From Anaerolineae bacterium (lineage in GTDB: Bacteria > Chloroflexota > Anaerolineae > UBA1429): 64,000 nt of DNA. This document shows, piece by piece, positions 8,796-27,487 of the stretch. The first letter of the stretch is position 1. Each line of letters starts with the position of its first letter. The DNA lies in contig JAXGON010000001.1 of the NCBI GenBank assembly GCA_040767425.1, forward strand, positions 5,477 through 69,476, in the 5' to 3' direction. A program made the position numbers and the translations under genes. The notes under the pieces were generated by a model. It saw nothing but the letters and a program-made list of their open reading frames with translations. It ran no database searches and had not been told where the DNA came from.

Positions 8796-10139
8796 ATGCA
8801 GCTAGCGCGGCTCAAGGAGCGGATCTGTCAGGCGATCGAGGCTCGTCACGATGACATCGTGGCGCTCGGCGAGGACATCCTGCGGCATCCGGAGCTCGGT
8901 TTCAAGGAGCATCGCACGGCGGGGCTGGTGGCCGAGCTCTTTCGCTCGCTGGGAATCCCCACCGAGACCGGCGTCGCGGTCACTGGCGTCATCGGCCGAC
9001 TGAGCGGGCGTGGGCAAGGCGCTACCGTGGCCTATATGGGCGAGATGGACTCGGTGCTGGTCCATGGGCACCCCTTTGAGGATCCAGAGACCGGGGCAGC
9101 CCACGCTTGCGGACACCACGCCCAGATCGCCAACCTGGCGGCCGTGGCCTACGGTCTGGTAGAAAGCGGCGCCATGGCGGAACTCGATGGCGATGTGCTC
9201 CTCATGGCGGTGCCGGCCGAAGAGTTCGTCGAGATCGACTATCGCTTGAGCCTGCGCGACCAGGGCATCATCCGCTTCTTGGGCGGCAAGCAAGAGCTCA
9301 TCCGGCTGGGCGCGCTTGAAGGGGTCGATATCGTCCTTTCGACGCACCAGGGGGCGCGCGCAGAGGGCGGCAGCTTTTCGGCGGGTGGGGCCTGCAACGG
9401 CTGTGTGGTCAAGCGGGCTCGCTACCTGGGCAAAGCGGCCCACGCAGGCGGGGCTCCCCACGAAGGGATCAACGCCTTGGCGGCGGCCACCGTGGCTCTG
9501 CACGCCATCGATGCCAACCGCGAGACGTTCCGCGATGACGACCATATCCGCGTGCATCCGATCATGACCCGCGGCGGCGACCTGGTGAACGTGATCCCGT
9601 CCGATGCGCGGCTGGAGATGTACGTCCGTGGGGCCAGCACCGAGGCCATCGCGGCGGCGGCCAAGCGCGTGGATCGCGCCCTGGTGGCGGGGGCGTTGGC
9701 GCTGGGAGCCGAGGCCGAGATCGAGAGCATCCCCGGCTACCAGCCGCGACGGCCTTGCAGCGAGCTGGCGCGGCTGTATCAGGCCGAGGCTGTGGCCCTG
9801 GTAGGAGAGGAGGGCTGGTGGGATAGTGGATTCGGCGCGGGTTCCACCGACCTGGGCGACGTGAGCTTGCTGATGCCGGTGCTAGAAGCGGTGGCCAACG
9901 GGTGCCGCGGCATCGGGCACGGCGCCGACTTTTTGGTGCATGATCCGGACCTGGCCTATGTCCTGCCGGGCAAGGTGGCAGGGCGGTCGGTGGTGGAGCT
10001 CTTGGCCAACGACGCCGCCCGTGCGCGCGCCATCGCCGAGGCGTACCAGCCACCCATGACGCGGGACGCTTACCTGGAGCATATGGCCTCGCAGGAGATG
10101 CTGTACCGGTGGCGGCCGGGGTTGCCGGCGGGGGAGTAG
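8796..10139 (+). CDS. M20 family peptidase/amidohydrolase (M20D-like).
   Basis: ORF of 447 aa with the metal-ligand motifs HACGHH...EE and the M20 dimerisation-domain pattern. A GAAGGGG Shine-Dalgarno precedes the ATG. Confidence 0.8.
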   Translation: MQLARLKERICQAIEARHDDIVALGEDILRHPELGFKEHRTAGLVAELFRSLGIPTETGVAVTGVIGRLSGRGQGATVAYMGEMDSVLVHGHPFEDPETGAAHACGHHAQIANLAAVAYGLVESGAMAELDGDVLLMAVPAEEFVEIDYRLSLRDQGIIRFLGGKQELIRLGALEGVDIVLSTHQGARAEGGSFSAGGACNGCVVKRARYLGKAAHAGGAPHEGINALAAATVALHAIDANRETFRDDDHIRVHPIMTRGGDLVNVIPSDARLEMYVRGASTEAIAAAAKRVDRALVAGALALGAEAEIESIPGYQPRRPCSELARLYQAEAVALVGEEGWWDSGFGAGSTDLGDVSLLMPVLEAVANGCRGIGHGADFLVHDPDLAYVLPGKVAGRSVVELLANDAARARAIAEAYQPPMTRDAYLEHMASQEMLYRWRPGLPAGE

Positions 10140-10165
10140 GCCGTAGGCCGAAAGTGCAGGGCGGG

Positions 10166-10600
10166 TTACTCGTCGAGGGATGGCTTTCGGCGCAGGGCCT
10201 TGGTGCGGCCATGGTGTCGCTTGCTACGTAGGCGACGTTCGCGGGAGCCATGGGTGGGGCGCGTGGCGATGCGGCGCTTTGGCGGCTGGACCGCCTGGTA
10301 CAAGAGCCGCTGCAGACGCTCGACGACTTCTTGGCGGTTCCGCCACTGGCTGGGCGTGCTATCGGCCACCAGATGCAGGACGCCGCTGCTATCGATATGG
10401 CGCGCCAGCCGCTGTAGGACACGCTCGCGGATCGGCTCCGGCAGACTGGGGGAGCCGGCCACATCGAACAGCAGCTCCACGCGGCTGGCGGTGCGGTTCA
10501 CATTCTGGCCGCCCGGCCCCGATGCGCGACTGAACCGGAAGCTGACCTCGGCTAGCGGGATGGCCAGGCCGGAGCCAATCGGCAGCGTCTCCTCGGTCAT
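10166..10600 (-). CDS. arfB: Alternative ribosome-rescue factor ArfB (peptidyl-tRNA hydrolase, YaeJ family).
   Basis: Has the GGQ motif in SGPGGQNVNRTASRVEL and a basic C-terminal tail, KRRIATRPTHGSRERRLRSKRHHGRTKALRRK. Confidence 0.8.
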   Translation of the reverse strand: MTEETLPIGSGLAIPLAEVSFRFSRASGPGGQNVNRTASRVELLFDVAGSPSLPEPIRERVLQRLARHIDSSGVLHLVADSTPSQWRNRQEVVERLQRLLYQAVQPPKRRIATRPTHGSRERRLRSKRHHGRTKALRRKPSLDE

Positions 10601-12579: not shown

Positions 12580-12600
12580 CAGCCCTCCTTCGATGCGAAC

Positions 12601-12627
12601 GCGGGCCGCAACAAACGTGCGGCCCGC
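12601..12627 (-). terminator. GC-rich hairpin between the MIPS stop and the hydrolase start: a candidate terminator or attenuator with no clear U-tract.
   Basis: GCGGGCCGC, a 9-nt loop, then GCGGCCCGC (perfect 9-bp stem). On the minus strand it is followed by the RBS GGAGGG and the ATG of the hydrolase. Confidence 0.35.
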
Positions 12628-12642
12628 GCTTCCGACGGCGCT

Positions 12643-13716
12643 CTAGTCGCCGTTGGCGATCCAGGCTTCGAGCTGCCGCCGCGCCTCGTCATCGTCGAGC
12701 TGATGGGGCGGCGACTTCATAAAGTAGGCCGAGGCGGGCACGACCGCCCCCGCCAGTCCACGGTCCTTGGCGATCTTGCAGCAACGTACCGCATCGATGA
12801 CCACGCCGGCCGAGTTAGGCGAGTCCCACACCTCGAGCTTGAGCTCTAGACGCAGCGGTATCTCTCCAAAGGTGGTGCCATTCATGTGGATATAGCAAAA
12901 CTTGCGGTCGGTCAACCACGGCACATAGTCACTAGGGCCCACATGGACGTGGTCGGGATCGATTCGATAGTCTAGCTGGCTAGTCACGGCGTCGGTCTTG
13001 CTGATCTTTTTCGATTCGAGCCGCTCGCGCTCGAGCATGTTGAAAAAGTCCATGTTGCCGCCAAAGTTGAGCTGATAGGTATCATCCAGGCGGACGCCGC
13101 GGTTCTGGAACAGGCGCGTCAGCACGCGATGGGTGATGGTAGCGCCGAGTTGGCTCTTGACGTCGTCGCCGATGATGGGCAAGCCGCGCTCACGGAAGCG
13201 CTCCTGCCAATAGGCCTCGCGGGCGATGAACACGGGGATGCAGTTGACCATGCCGCACCCTGCGTCCAGGATTTGCTGGACGTACCATTTGGTGGCCATC
13301 TCGGAGCCAACAGGCAGAAAGTTGACCACGACGTCAGTCTGGGTATCCCTCAGGATCTGCACGATGTTGTCGGTCGGTCCAGGCGCCTTCTCGATCCTTT
13401 GGCTCAGGTACTTGGCAATACCATCATGGGTCATGCCCCGATGAACGGGGATCCCCATGGGCGGCACGTCGGCGAACTTGATAGTGTTATTGGGCCCCGA
13501 CCAGATCGCCTCGGAGAGGTCTTTGCCAACCTTGGCGGCGTCGATATCAAAGGCGGCCGTGAACTCGATGTCCCCCACGTGATAGTTGCCGAGGCGGGGG
13601 TGCATCAGCCCGGGGATGAACTGATCCTCAGGCGCATGTTGGTAGAACTGGACGCCCTGCACCAAGGCGGCGGCGCAGTTGCCCACGCCGATGATGGCCA
13701 CGCGAACTTTGGGCAT
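12643..13716 (-). CDS. Myo-inositol-1-phosphate synthase (archaeal/bacterial short form).
   Basis: N-terminal [25 protein letters not shown] gives the Rossmann fold, and the family pattern holds throughout (NFGGNMDF, catalytic region). 357 aa. Confidence 0.85.
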
Positions 13717-13790
13717 AGTTTCCCCCTACTGTGGATGTGATAGCTTCAAGCAAAATACTGCGCCGATAGTAGGCGCGCTCTTGCAGGTCG

Positions 13791-15005
13791 TCAAGACCTC
13801 CAGGCCCGCTGGATCTTGCGCGCCGCGCGAGCAATGTCCAGAATATCCTCTCTTTCTGATAGCAGGATACTCTGCATCAACCAAAGCCCCCGACGGCCAG
13901 CCTCTTCCGCCACAGGGCAGGAGGCCTGGGGTGGTTCGGGCAGGCCCAGTCGGCGGGCGATATAGGCTGAGCGCTCCACGATGACGCGCGTGCGATGCAA
14001 CGGCTCACCATAGCCCGTCACGATGGGGATCCCCTCGGCCTGGATCGCCCGCGCAAAGTCCGCGGCGGAGCGCCCGCCAAAGGCGTCGGGCTGATACCAC
14101 ATCTTGAAGATATGATAGGCGTTGCGGGTGACGCGGGGGTCGCCTGGCAGTGGATCCAGCCCGTCGATATCGGCCAGGGCCTCGCGGAGGGTGGCGGCCC
14201 GCGCCGAGCGCACGGCGGCCTGCTCCTCCAGACGCTCAAGCTGGACGCGGATGATCGCGGCCTCCCACTCGGCCAGGCGATAGTTGCTGGCTAGGGTGTG
14301 GTGTTCGTACCAACCGCCGGTCCGGGATCGGCCTACATTGTGGACGGACCAGCATCGTTCGGCCAGATCGTCGTCGTTCGTGAGGATGATGCCGCCCTCG
14401 CCGCCGGTGACGTTCTTGCTGGCCTGAAAGCTAAAGGTGCCCATTTGGCCGATGGCCCCCACCGCGCGCCCCTGCCAGCGCGCGCCATGGGCCTGGGCCG
14501 CGTCCTCGATGACGACCAGCCCGTGGCGGGCCGCGATCTCGTTGATGGCGTCCATATCGGCTGGCTCGCCGCCGATGTGGACGGGTAGGATCGCCTTGGT
14601 GCGAGCGGTGATCAACGGCTCGATGCCAGATGGATCCATGTTCCAGGTGTCGGGTAGCACATCCGTGAAACGAGGGATCGCGCCCACCAACAAGGGTGTG
14701 TTCGCGGTGGCGATGAATGTGTAAGGCGTCGTGATCACCTCGTCGCCCCAATCGATGCCAGCGGCGCGAAGGGCCACCTCGATGGCGATGCTGCCGTTGC
14801 ACACGGCGATGGCGTGCTTGGCGTCGTGGGCCTGAGCGAACTCGGCCTCCATGGCGCTGACTTTTACGCCGCTCTGCGACCACCACCGACCAGAGTGAAC
14901 GACATCGGTGATCGCCTCGACCTCGCGTTGGTCCCAGATGGGCCAGCGCGGAAACGGCCGACTGCGGAGCGGCGTCCCGCCGTCGATAGCTAGCTTTTGT
15001 GGCAT
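13791..15005 (-). CDS. DegT/DnrJ/EryC1/StrS family PLP-dependent aminotransferase.
   Basis: Contains the FSFQASKNVTGGEGG lysine motif, the CNGSIAIEVALRA pattern and the TTPYTFIATAN pattern. It sits immediately upstream of the MIPS gene on the same strand with a 74-bp gap. Confidence 0.85.
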   Translation of the reverse strand: MPQKLAIDGGTPLRSRPFPRWPIWDQREVEAITDVVHSGRWWSQSGVKVSAMEAEFAQAHDAKHAIAVCNGSIAIEVALRAAGIDWGDEVITTPYTFIATANTPLLVGAIPRFTDVLPDTWNMDPSGIEPLITARTKAILPVHIGGEPADMDAINEIAARHGLVVIEDAAQAHGARWQGRAVGAIGQMGTFSFQASKNVTGGEGGIILTNDDDLAERCWSVHNVGRSRTGGWYEHHTLASNYRLAEWEAAIIRVQLERLEEQAAVRSARAATLREALADIDGLDPLPGDPRVTRNAYHIFKMWYQPDAFGGRSAADFARAIQAEGIPIVTGYGEPLHRTRVIVERSAYIARRLGLPEPPQASCPVAEEAGRRGLWLMQSILLSEREDILDIARAARKIQRAWRS

Positions 15006-15114
15006 GTCACTTTCTCCTGTACCAAGGACGCGATGCTAGGTCATCGTAGCCGCTTGGGACCCCTTAGGTCAACTTGGTGCGATTCTGTGGCTGCGCTAGA
15101 ATGCTTCAAAGGAG

Positions 15115-15702
15115 ATGACCATGAACGATGAGCGACTGGCTACTATGATCCGTCTGCGAGATGGCCGCGAGGCCCGCGTGCGCCCACTCGAGCGCGAGGA
15201 TGCCGAGACGCTGGGGGATTTCTTTTGTGGGCTCTCGGAAAAGACCCGCAGCACGTACGGTCCGCACCCGTTTGGGCGCGATACGGCCGCCGAGCTGTGC
15301 GCCGCCGCGGACGACCCGCGCACGATTCGATTCGTCGCCGTGCTGGAGGATGAGACGCCCCACGCCGAGATCATCGCCTATATGATCCTCTCGCGGCACA
15401 TCTGGGATGGCGATCGCAGCCGCTATGGCGAGACGGTCCCCTGGGAGACGACAGCTTGCCTGGCGCCCGTGGTGGCCGATGCTCACCAGGGCCAAGGCCT
15501 GGGTAGCGCCATGGGGCGTCACGTGCTGGCCTGCGCGCGGGCCCTGGGTCTTTCGCACGTGATTTTGATGGGCGGCGTGATGGATGAGAACCCGCGCGCA
15601 CGGCGCGTCTATGAAAAGCTGGGGTTCGAGTTCGCGCGCAGCTTTGAGACCGAGGCTGGCGGCCAGCGTCGCCTTAACCATGACATGGTAGTGACGCTCT
15701 AG
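15115..15702 (+). CDS. GNAT family N-acetyltransferase.
   Basis: Acetyl-CoA binding motif QGQGLGSAMGRH...A. An AAAGGAG Shine-Dalgarno lies immediately upstream. Divergent from the DegT gene. Confidence 0.75.
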   Translation: MTMNDERLATMIRLRDGREARVRPLEREDAETLGDFFCGLSEKTRSTYGPHPFGRDTAAELCAAADDPRTIRFVAVLEDETPHAEIIAYMILSRHIWDGDRSRYGETVPWETTACLAPVVADAHQGQGLGSAMGRHVLACARALGLSHVILMGGVMDENPRARRVYEKLGFEFARSFETEAGGQRRLNHDMVVTL

Positions 15703-15875
15703 GGCCTGGGCAGTCAGCCCTGGCGGGATCTGTGGCTATCAGGGGGCTGCTGAGGGTGGTTCCCAGCCGACAAAAGACTAGCGCCGATGCCTTGGGTTGT
15801 CTGGTAGCGAGCATGCTCTCTTTGCGACGCAGAGTGGGCCTGCCCAGTGTGGTGTGGTAGAGCGAGGGGGAATAC

Positions 15876-16889
15876 GTGAGCCATCTGGTGGCGTTCGCCA
15901 GTCTGCCGTTTGGGATGCGAGGTGGCGAGTATCCCGTGGCAGTCGGCGACGGGCAGGTGCTGGTGCGCGTCGCCGACCAGCGATTCAACCCCTTTCTCTC
16001 GGTCACCTCGCGACCCGAGCTGGCCCAGAGCTTGCCCCAAGGGCGTATCGATGATCGGTTCACCAGCTATACCTGGTACGATCACCCCTTTCTCCTGCAA
16101 GTGGTTTTTGGGAGGAACGTGGCTGCGCTGGGGTCGATCAGCTCCATGGCGACGGTGGTGGAGCCCCTCCCGCGGCGCAGCCTCCGAGGCAGTCCCACTG
16201 TGTTGGACGAGCGCATGGAGCGGTTTGGGCAGCGAGCCATGCACGCCTGCAACACGGTCATTGCGGCGGTGCGGCGCAGGGCGCATCTGTATCAGCTTCT
16301 CGATCTCACCCGTGAGGACATCGAGATTACCATTCGCGACGACGCTGGCGCGGTGCTACGACACGATCCCGTGGAGGGCATCGTGGCCGAGCGTCAGGCC
16401 CGCGAGACTGAATCCTTTGATCTGGTAGATCGCGATGACGCCTGGTATCAGGAGTTGCGAGAGCATCTTGCGGAAGCTAGCGACTATTCGCTGGCTGAGG
16501 ATCTGTTGCTAGAGGCCGAACGCGCGTTGGCTCAACGTTTTGCGCGGCAGGCGGTGGCCACTTGCTATAGCGCCCTGGAGGCGGCGGCCGCGAGCCTATT
16601 GACGGCGCGCATGAAAGGGCATGGCCGTAGCGATCGGGAGATCGACGCTACGCTGGCGGGCAAGGGGCTGGCCTCCAAGCTCGATAGTCTGCTGCGTACG
16701 TATACGGGCTATAGCTTGCGGCGCGACAACCACGAGCTTTGGCACGAATTCTACGACTTTTTGGCCTTGCGGAACGACGTCGTGCACCGTGGGCTCTGTC
16801 CCAGCAACGAGCGGGTACGCGAGGCGATGCGCATCACGCGCAACATTATGGACTGGCTCGTTATGGTGACCGCCCGTGTAGGGACATGA
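15876..16889 (+). CDS. Hypothetical protein whose C-terminal region resembles a HEPN-like helical domain (R-x4-HRG motif).
   Basis: 337-aa ORF with a GTG start. I recognise no family for the N-terminal roughly 200 aa. The C-terminal roughly 120 aa is predicted helical and contains ...FLALRNDVVHRGLCP..., an R-x4-H motif characteristic of HEPN RNase domains. Confidence 0.5.
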   Translation: MSHLVAFASLPFGMRGGEYPVAVGDGQVLVRVADQRFNPFLSVTSRPELAQSLPQGRIDDRFTSYTWYDHPFLLQVVFGRNVAALGSISSMATVVEPLPRRSLRGSPTVLDERMERFGQRAMHACNTVIAAVRRRAHLYQLLDLTREDIEITIRDDAGAVLRHDPVEGIVAERQARETESFDLVDRDDAWYQELREHLAEASDYSLAEDLLLEAERALAQRFARQAVATCYSALEAAAASLLTARMKGHGRSDREIDATLAGKGLASKLDSLLRTYTGYSLRRDNHELWHEFYDFLALRNDVVHRGLCPSNERVREAMRITRNIMDWLVMVTARVGT

Positions 16890-16923
16890 TGCGGGCCGTA
16901 CGTAAAGACCTGTCGCGGGAGTC

Positions 16924-16952
16924 TTGACCCCGAACAAACGTTCCACTATAAT
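16924..16952 (+). promoter_or_regulatory. lexA promoter with an embedded SOS (LexA) box.
   Basis: TTGACC (16924-16929), a 17-bp spacer, then TATAAT (16947-16952). The spacer contains CGAACAAACGTTC (16931-16943), a GAAC-N4-GTTC Cheo-type LexA operator. A GAGGAG Shine-Dalgarno follows at 16974-16979 and the ATG at 16986. Confidence 0.6.
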
Positions 16953-16985
16953 GGGCGCAAGCTGGAGCTAGTGAGGAGTTCGGCC

Positions 16986-17642
16986 ATGCCCAAGCGTAAG
17001 GGGTTGTCCAAGCGGCAGCAGCGCATGCTCGACGCCATTCGCAGCTTTCTGGACGAGAATGGATATCCCCCCACCATTCGCCAGCTATGCGACATGGCGG
17101 ATATCTCTTCCACGTCCGTGGCTAGCTACAACCTCGACATTCTCCAGCGCCAGGGATTCATCACCCGTGACCCCGACGTCTCCCGCGGGATTCGCTTGGT
17201 GGAGAATGGCGAGGCGTCGCGGCGCGTCGGGCAGGTGGCGGTGCCGCTTCTGGGGGTGATTGCTGCTGGTGAGCCCATCCCCGTGCCCGATTCGGACTTT
17301 TCGCAAGCTGATTATGAGCTTATCGACCTGGCACGAGACCTGGTGCCCGATGCCGAGGATGTGTACGCCCTGGAGGTACGTGGTACCTCGATGATTGACG
17401 CCCTCATCGGTGATGGCGACATCGTCCTGATGCGGCATCAGACCAACGCCCGCAGCGGCGAGACGGTGGCCGCCTGGCTCAAGGACGAGAAAGCGACCAC
17501 CCTCAAGACGCTGTACTGGGAACAGAATGGGTCCGTGGCTCGCCTACAGCCCGCCAACCCCACCATGGAGCCGATCTATGTGCATGCCCGTGACCTCGAG
17601 ATTCAGGGACGCGTCATCGGGGTGGTCCGTCGGCTCGGCTAG
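16986..17642 (+). CDS. lexA: LexA repressor.
   Basis: N-terminal wHTH (GYPPTIRQL), a cleavage-site region, the S24 peptidase Ser in EVRGTSM, and the Lys dyad partner (TLKTL). 218 aa from MPKRKG. Confidence 0.85.
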   Translation: MPKRKGLSKRQQRMLDAIRSFLDENGYPPTIRQLCDMADISSTSVASYNLDILQRQGFITRDPDVSRGIRLVENGEASRRVGQVAVPLLGVIAAGEPIPVPDSDFSQADYELIDLARDLVPDAEDVYALEVRGTSMIDALIGDGDIVLMRHQTNARSGETVAAWLKDEKATTLKTLYWEQNGSVARLQPANPTMEPIYVHARDLEIQGRVIGVVRRLG

Positions 17643-17655
17643 GCCGCCGTTGGCC

Positions 17656-20600
17656 CTAGTTCCAGTGGACGGTCAAGTTGCCAGGACCCAGCAGGTTGTT
17701 CAGGGAGCGCTCTAGATCCTGCGAATAGGCCACTCTGTGGTCAGGGAATCCCATCTTTACCTGGCCTTGGCCATTCACCAGCCTAATGGTAAAGGGCGTA
17801 TCTCCCCGATGGTTGCCTAGCAGCTCCAGCGCCCGTAGTGCCAACGCCTCGCGAGGTTCGCGGCCATCCTCCAGGGTAATGCGCAGCTCGATAGAGCGCG
17901 GCTTGGGGCGGTGGGCGGTCCTCTTGGGCGCATCCTTGGGCGGGTCGTAAGCCACGATCTGATCGGCGATCAGTTTGGCGCGGTCGTCGCGATCGTCCAC
18001 CTTGCCCGTGATCATAAGCACCCGCTGCTCGTGCAGGAGACCATTCGCCTCCTCATAGATGTGCGGGAATACCACCACCTCCATGACACCCGAAAGGTCC
18101 TCCAGCGTTACAAAGGCCATGCGGTTCCCCTTGCGGGTCATGATCTCGCGCGACTCGCTGACCACGCCGGCCACCGTGACGATCTCGCCGGTTATCGCCG
18201 TGGTGATCTCGGCCAGCTCTGTCAGGCGCTCGTCGGCGCAGGTGGAGAGCACATCCAGGGGGTGGGACGAGACATAGATGCCCAGCAGCTCGCGCTCGTC
18301 CGCCAGGCGCTGTTTTTCGGGGAGCGGTCGGAACTCTTGCGGCAACAGGTGGCCACTGCCCATGCTGGCCCCCATGCTGTCGCCGGCTAGGTCAAAGAGG
18401 CTGGCCTGGCCCACGGCGGCATCGTGCTGCACCCGCGCGCTCTCGGCCATCATGCTATCGATGCCGGCCAGCAGCGCTCCCCTGTCTCCCATCTCGTCCA
18501 GAGCGCCCGCGCGGATCAGCGCCTCCAGGGCGCGTCGGTTGACCTTGCGTAGATCCACGCGCTTGACGAAATCGTCAATGTCCGCAAAGGGCTCCTCTCC
18601 GCGCGCCTGAACGATCTCTGCGGCGGGGCCATCGCCACAGTTCTTGATAGCGCCTAGCCCAAATCGGATCGACAGGCTAGAGGCCTCCGATAGGTCGCAC
18701 GAGACGGGCGCGCCGGTCTCATCGGCTGGTTCGAGGGTGAAATCCACCCCCGAGCGATTGACGCTGGGCGCCAGGAGGCGAATCCCCTGCCGACGGCACT
18801 CGGCGGCCAGCACTGCCACTTTTTCCAGGTTGCCGCGCTCTACCGAGAGGAGAGCGCCCATGAACTGGGCTGGATAGTGAGCCTTGAGATAAGCCGTCTG
18901 CACGGTGATGACGGCATAGGCCGCGCCGTGGGACTTGTTAAAGCCATAATTCGCGAACCGCTCAATGTCGGCAAAGATGGTCTCGGCCGCTTCTCGCGGA
19001 ATGCCGTGAGCGACTGCGCCTTTGACAAAGTTGGCATGCTGCTCGTCGAGGTCCTTTTTCTTTTTCTTGCCCACCGCTCGCCGCATCAGATCGGCCTCGG
19101 CCGCCGTATAGCCGGCCAGCTCCTGGGCGATGCGGATAATCTGCTCCTGGTAGACGATGATGCCGTAGGTGTCCTTCAGGATCGGCTCTAGCGCGGGATG
19201 CGCATAGGTCACCTCCTCACGGCCGTACTTGCGATCGATATAGGAGCCGATATAGTCCATCGGTCCCGGGCGGAAGAGCGCGATCACCGCGATAATGTCG
19301 CGAAACTCGCTGGGCTGCATATCCCGCAGGGTGCGACGCATCCCCTCGCTCTCTACCTGAAAGACGCCGGTGACGTCGCCCGAGCACAGCAGCGCGTACG
19401 TGTCGGGGTCGTCCAGCGGGATTCCCTCGGGATCGAGGGTGATGCCCTCGGTGCGTTCGATCCAGCGGAACGTGCGGTCGAGCACCGTCAGCGTGGATAA
19501 CCCGAGGACATCCAGCTTGAGCAGACCGATGGCCTCGACGTCTTCCATGCAGAACTGGGAGACGAGCCCATCCCCGTGGGGCGCCGGGCGCAACGGGGTG
19601 TACTGGACCAAGGGCTTGTCGGCGATCAGGATGCCGGCCGCGTGTGTGGAAAAGTTGCGGGCCACGCCCTGCACCTGAATGGCGAAATCGAGCAACTGTC
19701 GGATGTCGCGCCGGCTGGCATGCAACTCGTGCAGCTCTGCCACCGTCTCGAGGGCGTTCTCGATCCGCTGCTTGGGGCCTTCGGGGATCAGCTTGGCCAC
19801 ATAGTCCACCTCGGCCAGGTCCATTCCAAGCGCACGCCCCACATCGCGGATGGCCGCTCTAGCCCCTAACGTGGTAAAGGTGGCGATCTGGGCCGTCTTG
19901 TCCTCGCCATAGCGCCGCACCAAATAGTCGATGACCTCGCCGCGGCGGTCTTCGGGATAGTCTAGATCGATGTCGGGCATGTTCACGCGGCCAGGGTTCA
20001 AAAAGCGCTCAAAGATCAGGTCCAGCCCAAGGGGTTCCAGGCTTGTGATGCCCAGTGCGTACGATACCAGGCTGCCCGGCCCCGAGCCTCGCCCAGGGCC
20101 CACCAGCATCTTGGCCTCGTTCTTGGCCCATTTCACCAGATCCCAGTTAATGAGGAAATAGTCGTCAAACCCCATCGAGTGGATCACCGAGAGCTCGTGC
20201 TCCAGGCGTTCGCGAATCGTCGGGGTGACCTCGCCATAGTGCCGTCGCAGGCCTTCCTCACAGAGCTGGCGGAGAAAAGTCTCGCTGGTGTGGCCTTCGG
20301 GCACCTCAAAAATGGGCAGGTGGTATCCCTCTTGCTCGATGGTATAGTTGCAGAGATCGGCCACCATGGCCGTGTTCTCGATGGCCTCGGGGTACTCGGG
20401 CAGGGCCGCCATCATCTCTTCGTATGAGCGCAGGTGGTAATCCTGGCCCGACATGCGCATCCGGTCCGGATCATTGAGCGTGGTCTGGGTCTGGATGGCC
20501 AGCAGCAAGTCTTGGGCGGCGGCGTCCTCCTTGCGTGCATAGTGGACGTCGTTGGTGGCGATGCACTTCAGGCCGAATTCGCGCGCCATGGTGGCTAGCT

Positions 20601-21168
20601 GCTGGTTGATCTCGCGCAGCGCTGGGATGCCGTCATGCTGCTGTAGCTCAACAAAGTAGCGATCGGGGCCAAATAGGTCTCGGAAAAAGCCCATCGCCTC
20701 ACGGGCGCCATCGACATTGCCCTGGAGCAGCTTGGCGGGCACCTCGCCAGAGAGGCACGCGCTGGTGCAGATCAGCCCCTCGGCGTATTCGGCCAGGGTC
20801 TGCCGATCGATGCGCGGTCGATAATACATGCCCTCTGTGGAAGCCAGGGTCACCAGCTTGAGCAGATTCTCATAGCCGACCTGATTCATAGCCAAAAGCA
20901 CCAGATGGTAAGCCTCGCGATCGACCCCTGGCTCGCGTTGCTGCATGCTGCGCGGCGCCTGGTACAACTCACACCCGATGATCGGCTTGATTCCCTGCTC
21001 GGCGGCCGCCTGGCAGAAGGAGACGGCAGCGTACATGCAGCCGTGGTCGGTCAATGCGAGGGCCTTCTGGCCCATCTCGGCGGCTCGCTTGCACAGCGCC
21101 TTGGGGCTAGAGAGCCCGTCCAGCAGAGAGAACTCACTATGGACATGCAGATGGACAAAGGAGCTCAC
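17656..21168 (-). CDS. dnaE: DNA polymerase III alpha subunit.
   Basis: 1170 aa. The N-terminal PHP domain reads HLHVHSEFSLLDG, followed by the polymerase core and OB fold. Confidence 0.9.
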   Translation of the reverse strand: MSSFVHLHVHSEFSLLDGLSSPKALCKRAAEMGQKALALTDHGCMYAAVSFCQAAAEQGIKPIIGCELYQAPRSMQQREPGVDREAYHLVLLAMNQVGYENLLKLVTLASTEGMYYRPRIDRQTLAEYAEGLICTSACLSGEVPAKLLQGNVDGAREAMGFFRDLFGPDRYFVELQQHDGIPALREINQQLATMAREFGLKCIATNDVHYARKEDAAAQDLLLAIQTQTTLNDPDRMRMSGQDYHLRSYEEMMAALPEYPEAIENTAMVADLCNYTIEQEGYHLPIFEVPEGHTSETFLRQLCEEGLRRHYGEVTPTIRERLEHELSVIHSMGFDDYFLINWDLVKWAKNEAKMLVGPGRGSGPGSLVSYALGITSLEPLGLDLIFERFLNPGRVNMPDIDLDYPEDRRGEVIDYLVRRYGEDKTAQIATFTTLGARAAIRDVGRALGMDLAEVDYVAKLIPEGPKQRIENALETVAELHELHASRRDIRQLLDFAIQVQGVARNFSTHAAGILIADKPLVQYTPLRPAPHGDGLVSQFCMEDVEAIGLLKLDVLGLSTLTVLDRTFRWIERTEGITLDPEGIPLDDPDTYALLCSGDVTGVFQVESEGMRRTLRDMQPSEFRDIIAVIALFRPGPMDYIGSYIDRKYGREEVTYAHPALEPILKDTYGIIVYQEQIIRIAQELAGYTAAEADLMRRAVGKKKKKDLDEQHANFVKGAVAHGIPREAAETIFADIERFANYGFNKSHGAAYAVITVQTAYLKAHYPAQFMGALLSVERGNLEKVAVLAAECRRQGIRLLAPSVNRSGVDFTLEPADETGAPVSCDLSEASSLSIRFGLGAIKNCGDGPAAEIVQARGEEPFADIDDFVKRVDLRKVNRRALEALIRAGALDEMGDRGALLAGIDSMMAESARVQHDAAVGQASLFDLAGDSMGASMGSGHLLPQEFRPLPEKQRLADERELLGIYVSSHPLDVLSTCADERLTELAEITTAITGEIVTVAGVVSESREIMTRKGNRMAFVTLEDLSGVMEVVVFPHIYEEANGLLHEQRVLMITGKVDDRDDRAKLIADQIVAYDPPKDAPKRTAHRPKPRSIELRITLEDGREPREALALRALELLGNHRGDTPFTIRLVNGQGQVKMGFPDHRVAYSQDLERSLNNLLGPGNLTVHWN

Positions 21169-21446
21169 ACAATCCTCCAGACAAAGCGGACAGCTATGGA
21201 ATCAGGAGATCGGGCTGGCGCGCAGGAGCGAGGAATCCTGCGACGGCCTCAGCATAAACGGAAGATGCCCGCTGGGCAAGCCGCCGGCGCCGCAAAGGGC
21301 GGGCAACCGGTGCCTTGCACCAATGGTTCCGTCGTCGCTGGCGGCGAGAGAAACGGGCCAGTGGTGGCGGGCCTGGCGCAATGGCAGACGCAGCAACACC
21401 TCCTGGCCCCAAGATCGGGTCAGGAGGTGTTGCGAGTATCACGCCA

Positions 21447-21519
21447 AGCCACCCTCGAGACTTGAACTCGAAACCTGGCGCTTACGAAGCGTCTGCTCTG
21501 CCGATTGAGCTAGGGTGGC
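21447..21519 (-). tRNA. tRNA-Thr (anticodon CGT). The 3' CCA is not encoded.
   Basis: The minus strand folds as a cloverleaf: acceptor GCCACCC/GGGTGGC, D-arm GCTC-AATCGGCA-GAGC, anticodon arm GACGC-TTCGTAA-GCGCC (one A.C mismatch), T-arm TCGAG-TTCAAGT-CTCGA, discriminator T. Confidence 0.65.
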
Positions 21520-21591
21520 GCCGCCGCGCCCGAGGGCGCAGAGCGGAGCCAGTATAGCGGGCTGGCGTGCCACCGTCAAATCGCGAGCGGA

Positions 21592-22404
21592 TCAGGCGAG
21601 CAGGCCATCCCGCAGGCCACGCAAGTAAGCCACGCTTTCCAGCGTGCTGGAGGCATAGTCGGCCTTGCCCTCATACTCACTAACCACGCCGCCGTTGTAT
21701 CCACGGTCCGTTAGCGCTTTCAGCAGGCCCTTTAGGTTGATCTGGCCACGGCCAGCGGGGACCAGATCCACCTGGCCATCGACCAGGTTAAGGTCCTTGA
21801 CATGCACGCTATAGATCCGCGGCAGCAAGGCGTCGATAAAGCGCTGGGTGTCCTCAAGGCTGTGCCCGGCCCAGCAGAAATTGCCGGTATCGAGAGTGAC
21901 GCCTAACTGCGAGGATCCCACGTCTTGGAGAATGTTCCCGATCACGTCCCCGTCATTCATCAAGCGACCGTGGTTCTCGATGGCGATCTGTAGATCCCAA
22001 CCGGCGATGCGCTCACACACGGCCGTGAAGCCCCGCACCACCCAGGGGTAGAACTCGGGCGCCGTATGGCCCTCCTTGACGTCGCCCACGAACGCGCGGA
22101 CGACGGGCACCCCTAGCGTGCGGGCCAACTCGCAGTAGCTAAAGAGCTGATCCACCTGCTCCTGCAGATCCTCCTCGGTGAGCACGGCAAAGTCGCAATA
22201 CCCACCTAGGCTGGTCACCCGCAGGCCGGCCGCGGCGATGGACGCCATCACCGCGTCATGGTCGACGTCGCCTTGCCAGAGGCCTTGATGGATCGTCGGC
22301 CTTCCGTTTAGCTCGATGGTCTCGCAGCCAAAGGCCTGAGCGGCTGCCAACACCTTGGGGAGCGGCTCTGACCCCATCCCCAAGCTCGTCATGCCGATAT
22401 ACAT
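21592..22404 (-). CDS. Sugar phosphate isomerase/epimerase (xylose-isomerase-like TIM barrel).
   Basis: Family pattern along the whole 270 aa, including IELNG..., IAIENHG and HVKD. Confidence 0.75.
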   Translation of the reverse strand: MYIGMTSLGMGSEPLPKVLAAAQAFGCETIELNGRPTIHQGLWQGDVDHDAVMASIAAAGLRVTSLGGYCDFAVLTEEDLQEQVDQLFSYCELARTLGVPVVRAFVGDVKEGHTAPEFYPWVVRGFTAVCERIAGWDLQIAIENHGRLMNDGDVIGNILQDVGSSQLGVTLDTGNFCWAGHSLEDTQRFIDALLPRIYSVHVKDLNLVDGQVDLVPAGRGQINLKGLLKALTDRGYNGGVVSEYEGKADYASSTLESVAYLRGLRDGLLA

Positions 22405-22482
22405 CCGGTCACCTCCTCAATCTGATCGATACGTCCAGTCGTAAGGGGCGCCTGCCTGGGGGCGCGCTGGCCCAGTTGCTGC

Positions 22483-25400
22483 TCAGGCTCGGTACAGCTT
22501 GAGCGTCCGCACTTGGTGAGGCGTCAGGGCTAGCCGCACCTTGTTGCCATTCACGGGCAGAACGCTTCCCGGATCCTCCAGCGGGTTGGTGGCCTCGCAG
22601 CGGGTCAGCTCCCAAGGGCAGGTGAGCTCCGCCTCGGCCGTCTTTCCGTGCATCTCTGCCAGGCGGATCACCACGGCGTTGGAACCATCCTCGGCCATCT
22701 TGAGAGCGGTCACCATGACGTTTGATGGCTCACACGTGAGCATCGCGGTGCCCGGCGTGATCGGCCCGCGATGAGCGTCCGTGACGGCAGCCACCAGCGG
22801 CTGGTTGAACTCGACGCCACGGCGGTCGCTAGCGGCCTCTCGCCAGTCGCCCGTATGGGGATAGAGGGCATAGCTAAAGCTGTGCTCGCCCACGTCGGGC
22901 ACATTGTCCGGCTCGTACGACGAGCGTAGCAACGTGAGCCCCAACGTGGTGCCCTGCGCCGAGTGGCCATACTTGCCATCGTTCAGCAACGACAGGCCAT
23001 AGCTGCCGTCAGAGACGTCGGCCCACCGCAGAGCCGGCACCTCGTCTCCCGTCGCATTGCGCTCCAGGCCGGCATAGGCTACCTCAAAGGTCGCCTTGGT
23101 TGGCCCCAGGTTTGGCTTGAAGGTTGCGCGCAGCATCGGCGCGTCCACATCCTTGCCGCCTAGCTGCTGCCAGTCGATCCAGTTGTCGACGTCGATGCGG
23201 CGCAGGCCAGTGTAAAGCCGATATCGTTGAACGATGGTAGAGTCTAGGAAACGATGCCGTACTTTGACCGTGGCGCGCACCGGACCTCGCTCCGTGACGG
23301 CGACCTCTGCCCCTTTAAGGAGGTTATCCACCCGCGTGATGTCGCCAATGTTCCAGGCCGACATGGGGTGGGGTTCCTCCCAGCACACCTGTAGCCGGTT
23401 GATGAGGCCGGCGGTCTGTTTGCGCTCAACGCCGCGCCAGGTGCTCATGGTATCGACGACACGCTCGTTCTCCAGGTCGACCAAGCTGTCGATAGCTCCC
23501 GAGCGCGGATGCACGCGCATGCTGAGGATGCCGTTGGCGAGGGTGCCGTCGCCGTCCACCGAGACGCCCGCCGGCGCTGGCTCCTGACTGGGGCGATAGA
23601 CTCGGCAGCCCAGGGCGGGCATCGCCTCGGCCACAAAGAGCAGATCATCGCCATCCGTCTGCACCGGCAGACTCACGCCGTGATCGTCGACTAGGGCCGC
23701 CGGAACGGCCTCCAACGATGCCAGCGGGATGCGAACTAGGTCGGTGCGCTCCCACGCCAGCGGGTTCCACACCACGATGCGCGGTCCCTCGCCAGGGCCG
23801 GTATCCACGGCGCCGGCGAGCGCCTGGGCCGCCTCGTTGGTCATCTGGTCGGCATCGGCCACCACGCCGTCTAGGAGCTCCACCGCCTCATCATAGGTCG
23901 CCCCGATGGCGCAGCCGCACAGGATATCGTGGAATTGGTGGAATAGCGTGGTCTTCCAGGCCTCCGCCAGCTCGTCGTGGCGATAGGCGAGCTCCGTGTG
24001 GCTGGCGGCCAGCGTCTGCAAGGTCTCGGCCGTAAGTAGCGCTGTCTCACTGCGTCGGTTGCCGGCCTTGATGTCGCCATGGCTCGTGTAGCAGCCCTCA
24101 AAGGTGGTGTTCAGCTCCCCCTGAATCACGGGCAGCTCGACCCCAGTCTCCTCGACGGCGGCGTAGAAGGCCTCGACCGTGCTCATCTGGGCCCGTGGCA
24201 GGAACGGGGTCCGGTCTAGCTGCATGGCCGCTTCAACGTCACGCGCAGTCGCGCCGCCGCCGTGGTCGCCCACACCATACAGATACAGCCCGCGTCGCAG
24301 GCCATGGCGTCGCGCCAGGTCCAACGTCGGCGCCAGGACGGCGTTAGGTGTGACCACGCCGTTGTATCCGAGAAAGTCGTTAAACGCCAACACCCGCGAT
24401 CCGTCGATCCCCTCCCACCAGAACAGCGGCTCGCCGCGCCCGGCTCGGCAAAAGTAGTAACGATCCACGCCGGCCTGCTGCAAGAGCTGTGGCAACGTGC
24501 CCACATGGCCAAAGGTGTCCGGCTCCCAGCAGATGCGCGGCTCCAGGCCAAAAGTCCTGCGCACATAGCGGCGCGTGTGTAGCAGGTGGCGCGCCAGCGA
24601 CTCGCCCAGCGCCATATTGAGATCGCCCTCTACCCAGGTGTTGGCAGTCACCTCCCAGCGCCCCTCGGCCACCCGCCTTTTGACGGCCTCCAGCACCTCT
24701 GGGGCGCTCTCGGCCATGGCTTGGTAGGTCGAGGCCTGGCTCTGCGAAAAGTGGAACTCGCCATAGCGCGCCATCAGCCCGTCGGCGGCCTCAAAGTCAC
24801 GCCGGATGACATCCACGGTCTCATCCCAGGTCCATAGCCAGTTCATGTCGATATGAGAATGGCCCACCAGGTGGGTCACATAGCTCTTGGCGGCATCTTT
24901 CATCGGGGCTAGGCGTTCCAGCGCTTGTTGGCAGCTAGCCTGCCAAGCGTCCCAGTTGGCGGCCGCCAGGGCATCCCGGTCGAGGAGCTCCGCGGCCTCG
25001 TTCCAAGCGTGTTGCCAGGCCTCGTTCGCGTCGGCGCTCTCATAGGCGAGATAGTGCGTGAAGCGGATCTGCCCCTCGAGCACCTCTAGCTCCCACTGCG
25101 CTTTAGCCAGGGAGCTCACCCGCGCCCCGCTGGGCAGGAACAAGCCAAAGCCGTCCCCGCCAAAGGCGTGCACCGCGATCTGGATCTCTTGCCCAGGGAC
25201 ATAGGCATCACAGACCACCAGCGGCACCGCGCGTGTATCCAGCCACGAAGGCTCAGCGCGGCGCAATTCGCCATCGACATAGACCTCGCTGTGGATGGGC
25301 ACGATGAACGGAAGCTCGACGCTGGCGCCGTCCGTCTCGATGCCAGCCACCGTGTCCTCAAACCGTAGCTTGCGACGCAGCCAGACCTCGCCGGCCGCGC

Positions 25401-25566
25401 CGGCCCAGGTGGCGCCGGGCTGCACTAGCTCCCAGCCGCCGTCATCGTATGCGGGGTCAGCGGCGCCGTCCGCCGCACCCTGGCAAAAGCGCCAATCGGG
25501 CAGGGCTTGAGCCTCTTCCAAGGCCTTCTTGATGGGCCTGATCGCGTCCAGGATTGTGTCAAGCAT
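22483..25566 (-). CDS. GH38 alpha-mannosidase.
   Basis: Contains HSHIDMNWLWTWDETV, ...WVEGD and ...CWEPDTFGH. Start taken at the internal MLDTILD, which follows a GGAGGG Shine-Dalgarno; the ORF track starts it at 25608. Confidence 0.85.
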   Translation of the reverse strand: MLDTILDAIRPIKKALEEAQALPDWRFCQGAADGAADPAYDDGGWELVQPGATWAGAAGEVWLRRKLRFEDTVAGIETDGASVELPFIVPIHSEVYVDGELRRAEPSWLDTRAVPLVVCDAYVPGQEIQIAVHAFGGDGFGLFLPSGARVSSLAKAQWELEVLEGQIRFTHYLAYESADANEAWQHAWNEAAELLDRDALAAANWDAWQASCQQALERLAPMKDAAKSYVTHLVGHSHIDMNWLWTWDETVDVIRRDFEAADGLMARYGEFHFSQSQASTYQAMAESAPEVLEAVKRRVAEGRWEVTANTWVEGDLNMALGESLARHLLHTRRYVRRTFGLEPRICWEPDTFGHVGTLPQLLQQAGVDRYYFCRAGRGEPLFWWEGIDGSRVLAFNDFLGYNGVVTPNAVLAPTLDLARRHGLRRGLYLYGVGDHGGGATARDVEAAMQLDRTPFLPRAQMSTVEAFYAAVEETGVELPVIQGELNTTFEGCYTSHGDIKAGNRRSETALLTAETLQTLAASHTELAYRHDELAEAWKTTLFHQFHDILCGCAIGATYDEAVELLDGVVADADQMTNEAAQALAGAVDTGPGEGPRIVVWNPLAWERTDLVRIPLASLEAVPAALVDDHGVSLPVQTDGDDLLFVAEAMPALGCRVYRPSQEPAPAGVSVDGDGTLANGILSMRVHPRSGAIDSLVDLENERVVDTMSTWRGVERKQTAGLINRLQVCWEEPHPMSAWNIGDITRVDNLLKGAEVAVTERGPVRATVKVRHRFLDSTIVQRYRLYTGLRRIDVDNWIDWQQLGGKDVDAPMLRATFKPNLGPTKATFEVAYAGLERNATGDEVPALRWADVSDGSYGLSLLNDGKYGHSAQGTTLGLTLLRSSYEPDNVPDVGEHSFSYALYPHTGDWREAASDRRGVEFNQPLVAAVTDAHRGPITPGTAMLTCEPSNVMVTALKMAEDGSNAVVIRLAEMHGKTAEAELTCPWELTRCEATNPLEDPGSVLPVNGNKVRLALTPHQVRTLKLYRA

Positions 25567-25591
25567 AGCTATCCCTCCGGTCTTGGTGGCT

Positions 25592-26449
25592 TTAGCCGTT
25601 GTAAGCATCCACGAGTGGCCTCAGGGTCCGCAGGGCGATCTCCAGGCCCTGGTCCCAGCGCTCGTGCAGGAACTCACCATCCTCGTGTTCGACGGCGATG
25701 TCACCCTGGTAGCCCACTTGCTTCAGGGCGTCAAAGATCGCCTGCCAGGGCAGTTCGCCCAGGCCCGGCAGCACAAAGCGCCACCAGCCCGTGCCATGCA
25801 CCCCAACCTTGGCGCGCTGTACTCGGTTGATGGCGATGTCCTTGGCGTGCATGTGGTGGATCCGCTCGCCATAGTCCAGGATCGCCTGCACATAGTCGAT
25901 CTCTTGCCAGGCGAGGTGCGAGGGATCGTACTCGAGCCCGAGACTGGGGGCGGGTACCGCCTCGATCAGCATGTCCCAGAGCTGGGGCGTCGTGGCCAGG
26001 TTGGTCCAGCGATAGGGCCCGTGCCCGAGCACACTGCCCGGCCAAGGCTCCAGGGCGATCTTGACGCCGTGGTCGGCGGCGTGGCGCGCGATGGGATCGA
26101 ACCGCTCCTTGAATAGCGGCAAGTTCTCTGCCACTGTCTTGCTGTTGTCGCGTCCCGTGAGGCCAGAGACGACGCCACAACCCAGCGCTTCCGCCAGCTC
26201 GACCGCGCGCGCATAGTAGCCCACGGCCGCATCGACCGGCGCCTCGATAGCGCCTCCGTAGATGGCCACAGACGTGATCGCCACGTTGTGCTCGGCCATG
26301 GCGTCCTTGAGCTGTGGCAAGTTTGCCATGGATACGTCCAGCGTGGAGGCGCCCAGCCAGCCCACGGCCGCCTCCAGGCTATCGTATCCCAGGCGGCGGG
26401 CCCGCCCGATGTTCTCGACGCTGAGCGGCATGAGAAATCCTAGCTTCAT
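25592..26449 (-). CDS. Sugar phosphate isomerase/epimerase (xylose-isomerase-like TIM barrel).
   Basis: Family pattern, including HMHAKD and ALEPWPG. Adjacent to the mannosidase gene on the same strand. Confidence 0.75.
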   Translation of the reverse strand: MKLGFLMPLSVENIGRARRLGYDSLEAAVGWLGASTLDVSMANLPQLKDAMAEHNVAITSVAIYGGAIEAPVDAAVGYYARAVELAEALGCGVVSGLTGRDNSKTVAENLPLFKERFDPIARHAADHGVKIALEPWPGSVLGHGPYRWTNLATTPQLWDMLIEAVPAPSLGLEYDPSHLAWQEIDYVQAILDYGERIHHMHAKDIAINRVQRAKVGVHGTGWWRFVLPGLGELPWQAIFDALKQVGYQGDIAVEHEDGEFLHERWDQGLEIALRTLRPLVDAYNG

Positions 26450-26541
26450 GGTGGTATCTCCCCTAGAGATGGATGAGTCTCAAGCCGATTCTACCGGGGG
26501 GCGGAACTGTGTCAACGGTAGCTGCGCCGATAAATGAAGAC

Positions 26542-26565
26542 GCTCCCGGGCAGTCGCCCGGGAGC
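26542..26565 (-). terminator. Perfect 10-bp GC hairpin downstream of the L25 gene.
   Basis: GCTCCCGGGC, loop agtc, then GCCCGGGAGC. On the minus strand it is followed by GUCUUCAUUUAU. Confidence 0.45.
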
Positions 26566-26591
26566 GTTCATGTTCGCAGGGAGAACGTGGT

Positions 26592-27269
26592 CTACTCGGC
26601 GCCCTCGGCGTCATCAGAGGCGTCTTCCTCGGACTCGGCCTCCTCACGCTCGGCCGCCTCGCCCTCAACACCCAGGAGCTCGAGCTCCTCTTCTTCTTCC
26701 TCTTCCTCTTCCATGCGAGGCGCGGCCACGTGGATCACGTCGGTGTCTGGTTCGGTGAGAACGTCCACATTGGGGGGGATGACGAGATCCGCCACCACGA
26801 TGGCGTCACCAAAGTTCTCTAGGCCGCTGATATCGACCGTGATCTCGGTAGGCATGTCGCCAGGGAGACACTCGACCTCCAGGGTCTCGAGCGTCTGCAC
26901 CACGGTGCCGCCGATCTCGACCACCGGGGCGATGCCTGTCTGTACGATGGGAATCTCGGTCGACACCTTTTGGTCGGCAACCACGGCGTAAAAGTCGACG
27001 TGCAGCAGGCTATAGGTGACTGGATCGCGCTGGATATCACGAATGAGGACGGTATGTGGCGACTCATTGCCGGCGACATCCAGGGTGATTAGCCGGTTAT
27101 AGCCCGCTTGAGCGACCGTCTGGATGGCCGCCTCGGCGTCCATCTCCAGGCTCTCGGTATCGATGGCGGCGCCATAGACCACCGCCGGCAGCTTTCCCTC
27201 TCTGCGCAGAGCGCGCGCCGTCTGCGATAGATCGCGCTTGGCAGCCGCAAGATAGATATCGTTCGCCAT
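26592..27269 (-). CDS. rplY: 50S ribosomal protein L25 / general stress protein Ctc, with an acidic poly-Glu C-terminal tail.
   Basis: MANDIYLAAAKRDLSQTARALRREGKLPAVVYG is a typical L25 N-terminus. The C-terminus carries EEEEEEEEELELLGVEGEAAEREEAESEED. Confidence 0.8.
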   Translation of the reverse strand: MANDIYLAAAKRDLSQTARALRREGKLPAVVYGAAIDTESLEMDAEAAIQTVAQAGYNRLITLDVAGNESPHTVLIRDIQRDPVTYSLLHVDFYAVVADQKVSTEIPIVQTGIAPVVEIGGTVVQTLETLEVECLPGDMPTEITVDISGLENFGDAIVVADLVIPPNVDVLTEPDTDVIHVAAPRMEEEEEEEEELELLGVEGEAAEREEAESEEDASDDAEGAE

Positions 27270-27345
27270 CGTCCACTGACCCCCCGTAACTGCCCTGCAT
27301 CGACAGCGCAAGATCGCTGCGATGATTTTTCACATGCAACTCGCA

Positions 27346-27374
27346 GAGTATAGCGACGGGTCGCAGAAGGGTCA
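27346..27374 (-). promoter_or_regulatory. Candidate promoter of the L25 gene.
   Basis: On the minus strand TTGACC (27369-27374), a 17-bp spacer, then TATACT (27346-27351). This leaves a leader of about 70 nt to the ATG at 27269. Confidence 0.4.
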
Positions 27375-27391
27375 AATCGCGTGTTCCCTCA

Positions 27392-27487
27392 GCTAACATG
27401 TTACCGAACGAGTATGATTCCCTCAGACGAGCATGTTGCTGGGGGAGTCATGAGGTGGGGCCTTCGGTAACATTATCATTTGGGTGG
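27392..27487. repeat. Third copy of the 28-30 bp repeat (27461-27487) together with an inverted partner (27392-27408), giving an 11-bp perfect inverted repeat around about 50 bp.
   Basis: 27461-27487 (CCTTCGGTAACATTATCATTTGGGTGG) is identical to 7300-7326. 27392-27408 (TAACATGTTACCGAACG) is its inverted arm, so AATGTTACCGAA pairs with TTCGGTAACATT. GC content here is about 40%, against about 65% for the surrounding DNA. Confidence 0.5.

Follow-up and report, generated by a model that had tools for sequence, protein, structure and literature searches.

A conserved gene with a C-terminal HEPN domain

We analysed a window of 64,000 nucleotides from an Anaerolineae bacterium (Chloroflexota; assembly GCA_040767425.1, contig JAXGON010000001.1, positions 5,477 to 69,476) and a plus-strand gene within it at window positions 15876..16889, referred to here as the HEPN gene after the C-terminal domain of its product. 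A GNAT acetyltransferase gene of the Acetyltransf_3 (RimJ/RimL-like) type lies directly upstream (15115-15702, plus strand), and lexA, recognized by its LexA_DNA_bind and Peptidase_S24 domain matches, lies downstream (16986-17642, plus strand). An earlier note on this DNA had reported a 337-amino acid (aa) protein with an R-x4-HRG motif in a HEPN-like C terminus; the open reading frame (ORF), 337 aa plus stop, was confirmed, and the peptide quoted for it, HEFYDFLALRNDVVHRGLCPSNERVREAMRITRNIMDWL, is present in the translation of 15876..16889. The start codon is GTG, with a purine-rich Shine-Dalgarno sequence of the AGGGGG type just 5′ of it, and the N terminus, MSHLVAFASLPF, agrees with those of all homologues in a 34-sequence comparison. 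A search of 5.8 billion proteins returned at least 92 full-length homologues of 333–369 aa, whose named sources are all Chloroflexota/Anaerolineae metagenome-assembled genomes (MAGs), and the ratio of nonsynonymous to synonymous substitution rates (dN/dS) among six close relatives is 0.04–0.09 in the N-terminal and C-terminal halves alike. Given these homologues and this level of constraint, 15876..16889 is a genuine gene and not a chance ORF. Its product was modelled with AlphaFold2 at a mean predicted local distance difference test (pLDDT) score of 82.9.

Residues 188–337 (16437..16886, plus strand) are modelled as a four-helix up-down bundle composed of helices 1 (206–219), 2 (223–248), 3 (286–305) and 4 (311–335), with a helical insert (253–284) between core helices 2 and 3. 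The predicted catalytic motif, R299-N300-D-V-V-H304-R305-G306 (16770..16793, plus strand), is an Rx4-6H sequence with a polar Asn after the Arg; it ends helix 3 and is followed by a loop to the last helix. Catalytic HEPN members have been described with the motif at the end of helix 3, a polar residue after the Arg and an insert between helices 2 and 3 (PMC3710099), a description that the window protein matches in motif position, polar residue and helix insert. All 34 sequences compared, 44–95% identical to the query, retain R299, N300, H304, R305 and G306 without exception, and likewise E213 in helix 1 and E235 in helix 2. Two outcomes that the earlier note had named as fatal to its proposal, a non-HEPN fold of the C terminus and an R-x4-H pair that varies among homologues, were not seen.

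Matches of the C terminus to curated libraries are all sub-threshold, and all are to HEPN models. The only Pfam model that the window protein itself picks up is Csm6 HEPN, at E=0.04 and below the curated threshold, and it gives a weak, sub-threshold match to the PADLOC Csx1/Csm6 HEPN models (E=2e-4). Across the 34 family members, the Pfam models most often matched are HEPN_RiboL-PSP (PF18735, 21 members), HEPN (PF05168, 16) and DUF4145 (PF13643, 14), in every case below the gathering threshold and with best E-values of ~1e-4 to 4e-5. For PF18735 the gathering threshold is 28.4 bits; with 11.4 bits (E=0.3) the window protein stays below it, and so do all of the 21 of 34 members that match at E<=0.1 (best E 1e-4). 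One member, P0151, has a precomputed PF18735 match, and an NCBIfam search with the HEPN gene product gave no match. We regard it as almost certain that the C terminus adopts the HEPN fold, and by analogy with characterized members the protein is likely to be a catalytically competent ribonuclease (RNase).

The remainder of the protein, residues 1–187, also appears to fold independently: modelled alone, it gives a confident structure (pLDDT 85.9; predicted template modelling score 0.75). It begins with a beta-rich subdomain (residues 1–98; 15876..16169, plus strand) of eight antiparallel strands, in which SLPF at 9–12 and Y65-x-W67-Y68-x-H70-P71-F72 are invariant; residues 65–72 read Y-T-W-Y-D-H-P-F. 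The connector that follows (residues 99–187; 16170..16436, plus strand) was delimited by DSSP assignments of the models, by hhalign comparison with distant groups and by a superfamily alignment. It consists of a long 30-residue helix (107–136) with invariant N126 and R133, a beta-hairpin (149–163) with invariant R154 and G158, and a helix at 165–180; the loop that links the long helix to the hairpin holds three more invariant residues, D143, L144 and R146, and directly after the hairpin D164 and P165 are also invariant. The earlier note had recognized no family for the N-terminal ~200 residues, and our searches agree. Sequence searches of the PDB, made with the protein itself and with profiles of the whole family and of the N-terminal module, found nothing significant, the viral structures of BFVD gave no match to the N-terminal module at E<=0.001, and its profile retrieved only its own family from the 5.8 billion proteins. 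Residues 1–187 constitute a family-specific orphan alpha+beta module with no convincing structural or sequence relative in these searches. A CARF/Csm6 identity, hinted at by the weak PADLOC and Pfam matches, was discarded: the N-terminal fold differs from that of CARF, and CRISPR context is absent.

More distant relatives were found with the C-terminal part of the protein. In an exhaustive phmmer search of 1.84 billion representatives, the full-length family amounts to approximately one cluster at 50% identity, while residues ~190–335 also match ~30 other proteins of 180–460 aa, nearly all of which carry R-N-x-[IV]-[IV]-H. Alignments to these distant groups by hhalign start at query residues 78–113 with probabilities of 97.6–99.1%, and homology therefore continues upstream of the HEPN domain to include the helix and hairpin of the connector. 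In a superfamily alignment of 22 sequences (21% mean identity), only the R and H of the motif are invariant; at least 90% of the sequences also share N300, G306 and the Asn of the connector helix (N126), and an early 'LP[FYW]' strand, judged by eye, is common to many members. These out-of-family relatives occupy conflict or mobile contexts. They adjoin genes for a TIR protein of the CAP12/Pycsar type, HD and HNH, sit among DUF488, DuOB and ORF6N genes, lie inside a type III restriction-modification (R-M) operon with a reverse transcriptase gene alongside, or are found beside genes for a DUF4145 HEPN, a resolvase with TraG/TrwB, NOV_C or RNase H. Neither arfB nor rplY was present near them in the contexts examined.

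Distribution and ancestral gene order

A scan of one genome per species (185,579 species) located the family at 37 loci in 36 genomes, two of the loci being halves of one gene split across contigs. All 36 genomes are Anaerolineae/Anaerolineales/Chloroflexota MAGs, and the family (~336 aa) is single-copy in each. Neighbours of these loci (given L numbers where they are named below) were mapped by tblastn with support from annotated contexts. The gene for the ribosome-rescue factor ArfB is directly upstream on the same strand in 22/36 genomes, that for ribosomal protein L25/Ctc (rplY) is directly downstream in 21/36, and the two occur together in ~15. The ancestral order is arfB, HEPN gene, rplY. 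The gap between arfB and the HEPN gene has a median of 64 bp (22–242, n=20), and that between the HEPN gene and L25 a median of 178 bp (130–370, n=21). In two clades the pair of arfB and the HEPN gene is kept, with gaps of 60 and 5 bp, where all other neighbours have changed and L25 is absent. No plus-strand terminator lies between arfB and the HEPN gene in L037 or L040, and in the L040 species L25 has its own strong promoter, a perfect sigma-70 sequence (TTGACA-16-TATAAT, 12/12) at 9056-9083 between the HEPN gene and rplY. Based on the short and persistent gaps, the lack of a terminator and the separate L25 promoter in L040, arfB and the HEPN gene likely form one transcription unit, with L25 as a syntenic neighbour.

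Two further observations concern these loci. Proteins P0007, P0020, P0051 and P0064 are called with a Pro/Arg/Lys-rich N-terminal extension of ~25 residues (for example, MKTSSRRSQPKRRHTPAPPPPPPP), and the extended start lies 5 bp past the arfB stop codon, as in L048 (5001-6068); the extension could result from a wrongly called start, or it could be a genuine basic tail similar to the one at the C terminus of ArfB. Just downstream of rplY, on the opposite strand, a small RRM_1 RNA-binding gene is found in L007 (6962-7261, minus strand), L008 (7155-7481, minus strand) and ~8 GTDB loci, which places another RNA-related gene in the ancestral neighbourhood.

We then compared divergence of the HEPN gene product with that of its neighbours. 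Its pairwise identities correlate with those of the proteins encoded at the same loci, at r=0.88 for L25 and r=0.69 for ArfB, and its mean identity (57%) is no lower than that of L25 (51%) or ArfB (56%). This co-divergence is the signature of a vertically inherited gene of housekeeping type and not of a defence gene, and the HEPN gene probably belongs to the former class rather than to mobile defence. The features of abortive-infection (Abi) and defence-island genes, namely patchy distribution by horizontal gene transfer, location in islands or on mobile elements and fast evolution, are absent from the family and are displayed solely by the distant out-of-family relatives. No integrase, transposase, R-M or other defence gene was found in any of the family's own examined contexts. 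Likewise, a nucleotidyltransferase (MNT) gene adjoins the HEPN gene in none of the examined contexts (neighbours include GNAT and LexA, ArfB, L25, MFS and sulfatase genes), which extends to the family what had been noted for the window, with GNAT upstream and LexA downstream.

Inversions flanking the HEPN gene in the window

The window departs from the ancestral order on both sides of the gene. Its arfB (10166..10600, minus strand) lies 5.3 kb upstream of the HEPN gene on the opposite strand and encodes 144 aa with a GGQ motif and a basic C-terminal tail; the product is identified as ArfB by a score of 153.9 bits with the NCBIfam equivalog NF006718, for which the cutoff is 100. The rplY/ctc gene, located by tblastn and as an ORF, is at 26592..27269 on the minus strand, ~10 kb from the HEPN gene and inverted. 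In blastn alignments the window is collinear with L011 up to 16889, after which L011 7060-11962 aligns in reverse to window positions 27381 to 22482. The ~10.5-kb inverted segment (16890..27381), which contains lexA, dnaE and further genes through rplY, is defined relative to L011, L012 and L014; these are 72–79% identical to the window in DNA, encode HEPN proteins with 88%, 81% and 79% aa identity, respectively, and have L25 downstream. One breakpoint falls directly after the HEPN gene stop codon, and the breakpoints abut the lexA promoter (16924) and, at the distal end, a promoter-like element of rplY (TTGACC-17-TATACT, ~27375-27347, minus strand). The inversion thus runs from promoter to promoter, lexA to rplY. 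Apart from the window, a downstream lexA was found only in L010, which encodes a 95%-identical protein (1/36 GTDB species genomes plus the window). The adjacency to lexA is the product of a recent ~10.5-kb inversion that replaced rplY with lexA, and it therefore says nothing about the function of the HEPN gene.

The lexA promoter (TTGACC-17-TATAAT, 16924..16952, plus strand; 11/12 match in a promoter scan) carries in its spacer a LexA box of the Cheo type, CGAAC-N4-GTTC, at 16931-16943, the sole perfect box in the window. The end of the HEPN gene is separated from the lexA −35 hexamer by 34 nt, and no terminator-like site was detected in 15500-17800. In these respects the earlier note, which placed the end of the gene (16889) 35 bp before the promoter and saw no intervening terminator, was accurate. 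Its suggestion of read-through into lexA or co-regulation with it is very unlikely to hold: the adjacency was made by inversion and is not conserved in the neighbourhood comparison that the note had recommended, and no CGAAC-N4-GTTC box occurs in 15703-15875 upstream of the HEPN gene even with one mismatch allowed. A one-mismatch LexA-like palindrome within the HEPN coding region (CGAACGCGCGTTG, 16517-16530) is probably due to chance, with 16 such matches in the window compared to 10.6 expected. In the MAG of L003/L010 (contig DAIRUQ010000042.1), public calls downstream of the HEPN gene give only short ORFs (64, 131 and 176 aa) in the region of the tblastn matches to LexA and DnaE, and window positions 17428-17681 fall in a gap of the alignment, suggesting frameshifts or assembly errors.

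On the upstream side, a block of genes for ArfB, an AXE1-like esterase, inositol-1-phosphate synthase and a DegT aminotransferase (10166-10600, minus strand, and 12643-15702) is inverted with respect to L029 and L033, in which plus-strand DegT, inositol-1-phosphate synthase and arfB genes lead into the HEPN gene. The orientation of this block indicates that an older inversion parted arfB from the HEPN gene in the window lineage. The GNAT gene of the window remains 0.2–6 kb from the HEPN gene in L010-L013, L022, L029, L034 and L045. An Rfam scan of 9000-29000 identified no RNA element.

A possible role in translation with ArfB

HEPN nucleases of prokaryotes are nearly always interpreted as toxins or as effectors of defence, and the family described here behaves like a core gene. 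From its HEPN fold with an intact motif, the constraint on both domains, vertical inheritance and persistent linkage to arfB, we tentatively infer a domesticated HEPN endoribonuclease that works with ArfB; functional coupling of the gene to ArfB and translation is put forward with similar or slightly greater caution. ArfB frees peptides from ribosomes with an empty or short mRNA channel; once mRNA extends more than ~9 nt 3′ of the P site, ArfB activity falls sharply, and Arf pathways leave the faulty transcript in place (PMC8012679). The ArfB pathway is not known to produce its mRNA substrate or to get rid of it. An RNase encoded with ArfB could supply either missing step. The protein would be a metal-independent endoribonuclease, probably dimeric by likeness to other catalytic HEPNs, whose branch would have been domesticated from a conflict-system superfamily into translation-linked RNA surveillance. 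One possibility is that it cuts mRNA at or close to stalled ribosomes and so allows ArfB to release the peptide. Another is that it destroys the faulty mRNA, which remains whole after Arf-type rescue. Recognition of the target, ribosome or RNA, would fall to the orphan N-terminal module. In its most specific form, that of a hitherto unrecognised bacterial ribosome-quality-control nuclease with a new ribosome- or RNA-recognition domain, which as dedicated partner of ArfB cuts mRNA at stalled or collided ribosomes or destroys non-stop mRNA, we consider the proposal unlikely. If correct, it would supply ArfB-type rescue with an mRNA-processing arm that this pathway is not known to have, and would provide a case in bacteria of a HEPN nuclease of the defence type that was domesticated for the core surveillance of translation.

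Several observations weigh against a role with ArfB. Adjacency of arfB to the HEPN gene is lacking in the window lineage and in L022, L034 and L045, with these three species a minimum, and tight co-transcription is therefore dispensable; at 5–8 further loci arfB is unscorable or absent within the available sequence. The link rests on synteny inside one bacterial order, where shared ancestry alone can keep gene order. No similarity of the N-terminal module to known ribosome-binding domains was detected. The protein has a mildly acidic pI of 6.1, which is atypical of a ribosome or RNA binder, and the canonical E-x3-[KR] HEPN submotif is absent in its exact form and spacing.

Some of these points favour a housekeeping HEPN RNase that acts independently of ArfB, in rRNA or tRNA maturation or RNA turnover with a recruitment like that of Las1, its gene order being inherited with no functional link behind it. 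Constraint and vertical inheritance fit such an enzyme equally well, the HEPN gene is kept in the lineages that lost arfB adjacency, and its frequent downstream neighbours include L25, a 5S rRNA-binding protein, and the RRM protein. The arfB pair, however, outlasts rearrangements that remove all other neighbours, with gaps of 5–60 bp, and the separate promoter of L25 makes it a weaker link than arfB; we hold this explanation to be somewhat unlikely. A solo HEPN toxin of abortive infection or defence, in which the N-terminal domain senses phage and unleashes non-specific RNA cleavage, would agree with the rule that most prokaryotic HEPN families are conflict-system effectors (PMC3710099), with the weak PADLOC matches to Csx1/Csm6 HEPN and with the distant relatives that combine HEPN and connector in type III R-M/reverse transcriptase, TIR, HNH, second-HEPN or mobile contexts. 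Against it, the family is single-copy in one clade, holds a fixed syntenic place among housekeeping genes free of integrase, transposase, R-M and defence genes, co-diverges with L25 and evolves as slowly as that ribosomal protein (dN/dS <0.1). Defence thus seems decidedly unlikely, and of the earlier description as a solo, Abi-like HEPN rather than a HEPN/MNT pair, the missing MNT partner stands and the Abi-like character is improbable.

The remaining alternatives fare less well. It is improbable that the two genes form a toxin/antidote-like pair, with HEPN as an mRNA-cleaving growth regulator and co-encoded ArfB relieving the resulting non-stop ribosomes: adjacency would suit such a pair, but ArfB is an equivalog-level housekeeping factor and not a family-specific antitoxin, the pair is neither mobile nor multi-copy, and the HEPN gene persists without adjacent arfB. 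A non-catalytic HEPN with a ligand-binding or regulatory role, as in MtlR, sacsin and nucleotidyltransferase-associated HEPNs, is highly improbable; such domains typically lose Rx4-6H (PMC3710099), and here R, N and H are invariant in the family and R and H across the superfamily. An SOS-linked gene co-transcribed or co-regulated with lexA could draw on the terminator-free 34 nt before the lexA −35 hexamer, but this idea is effectively refuted by the inversion that created the adjacency, shared only with the 95%-identical relative, and by the sole perfect LexA box belonging to the lexA promoter with none upstream of the HEPN gene. The eye-catching lexA adjacency is a rearrangement artefact.

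Comparison with known systems sets the family apart from each of them. The canonical catalytic HEPN domains considered were the MNT-associated toxins (SO_3166/5yep, 7ae2), TT1696 and AF0298; in contrast to these, the window protein has no MNT partner and carries a 187-residue N-terminal module, covered in no part by PF18735, PF05168 or PF13643, and its gene is not mobile or multi-copy but belongs to a family chromosomally fixed next to arfB. Csm6/Csx1 proteins combine a Rossmann-like CARF sensor with a type III CRISPR-Cas neighbourhood, and RnlA/LsoA (RNase LS) carry NTD/NRD or RNase H/TBP-like domains at the N terminus and are encoded beside an RnlB-type antitoxin; the window protein shows none of these. 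Nuclease-coupled rescue exists elsewhere, in SmrB with tmRNA and in Cue2/NONU-1 with Dom34. In Las1 and the Ire1/RNase L KEN domain, a conflict-type HEPN has likewise become fixed as a core RNA-processing or quality-control enzyme (PMC3710099), although this is an analogy only, since architectures and lineages differ. The prfH-rtcB operons resemble the arfB-HEPN arrangement in pairing the gene of a release factor-family peptidyl-tRNA hydrolase with that of an RNA-acting enzyme (PMC6514570). Compared with prfH-rtcB and SmrB, the partner here is ArfB and the enzyme a HEPN nuclease, not a ligase or SMR domain.

A HEPN domain by itself is ordinary. What is new is the uncharacterised architecture, an orphan beta-rich module and shared connector joined to HEPN, together with the turning of one branch of a conflict-type superfamily into a slowly evolving, single-copy, clade-wide gene, and the recurrent pairing of that gene with arfB, which is undescribed in the literature searched. 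In a published census of the gene neighbourhoods of release factors, the only conserved partner reported for ArfB was a pseudouridine synthase in proteobacteria (PMC6514570); our literature searches found no paper mentioning both ArfB and HEPN and nothing relevant for HEPN with 'ribosome rescue'.

The distant relative in the type III R-M operon (L052 202-7592; also L053) merits separate mention. The operon reads N6_N4_Mtase, the relative, ResIII, so that the relative lies between mod, with a 4-bp overlap, and res. A reverse transcriptase gene is next door, and this protein may be an undescribed R-M-associated HEPN accessory.
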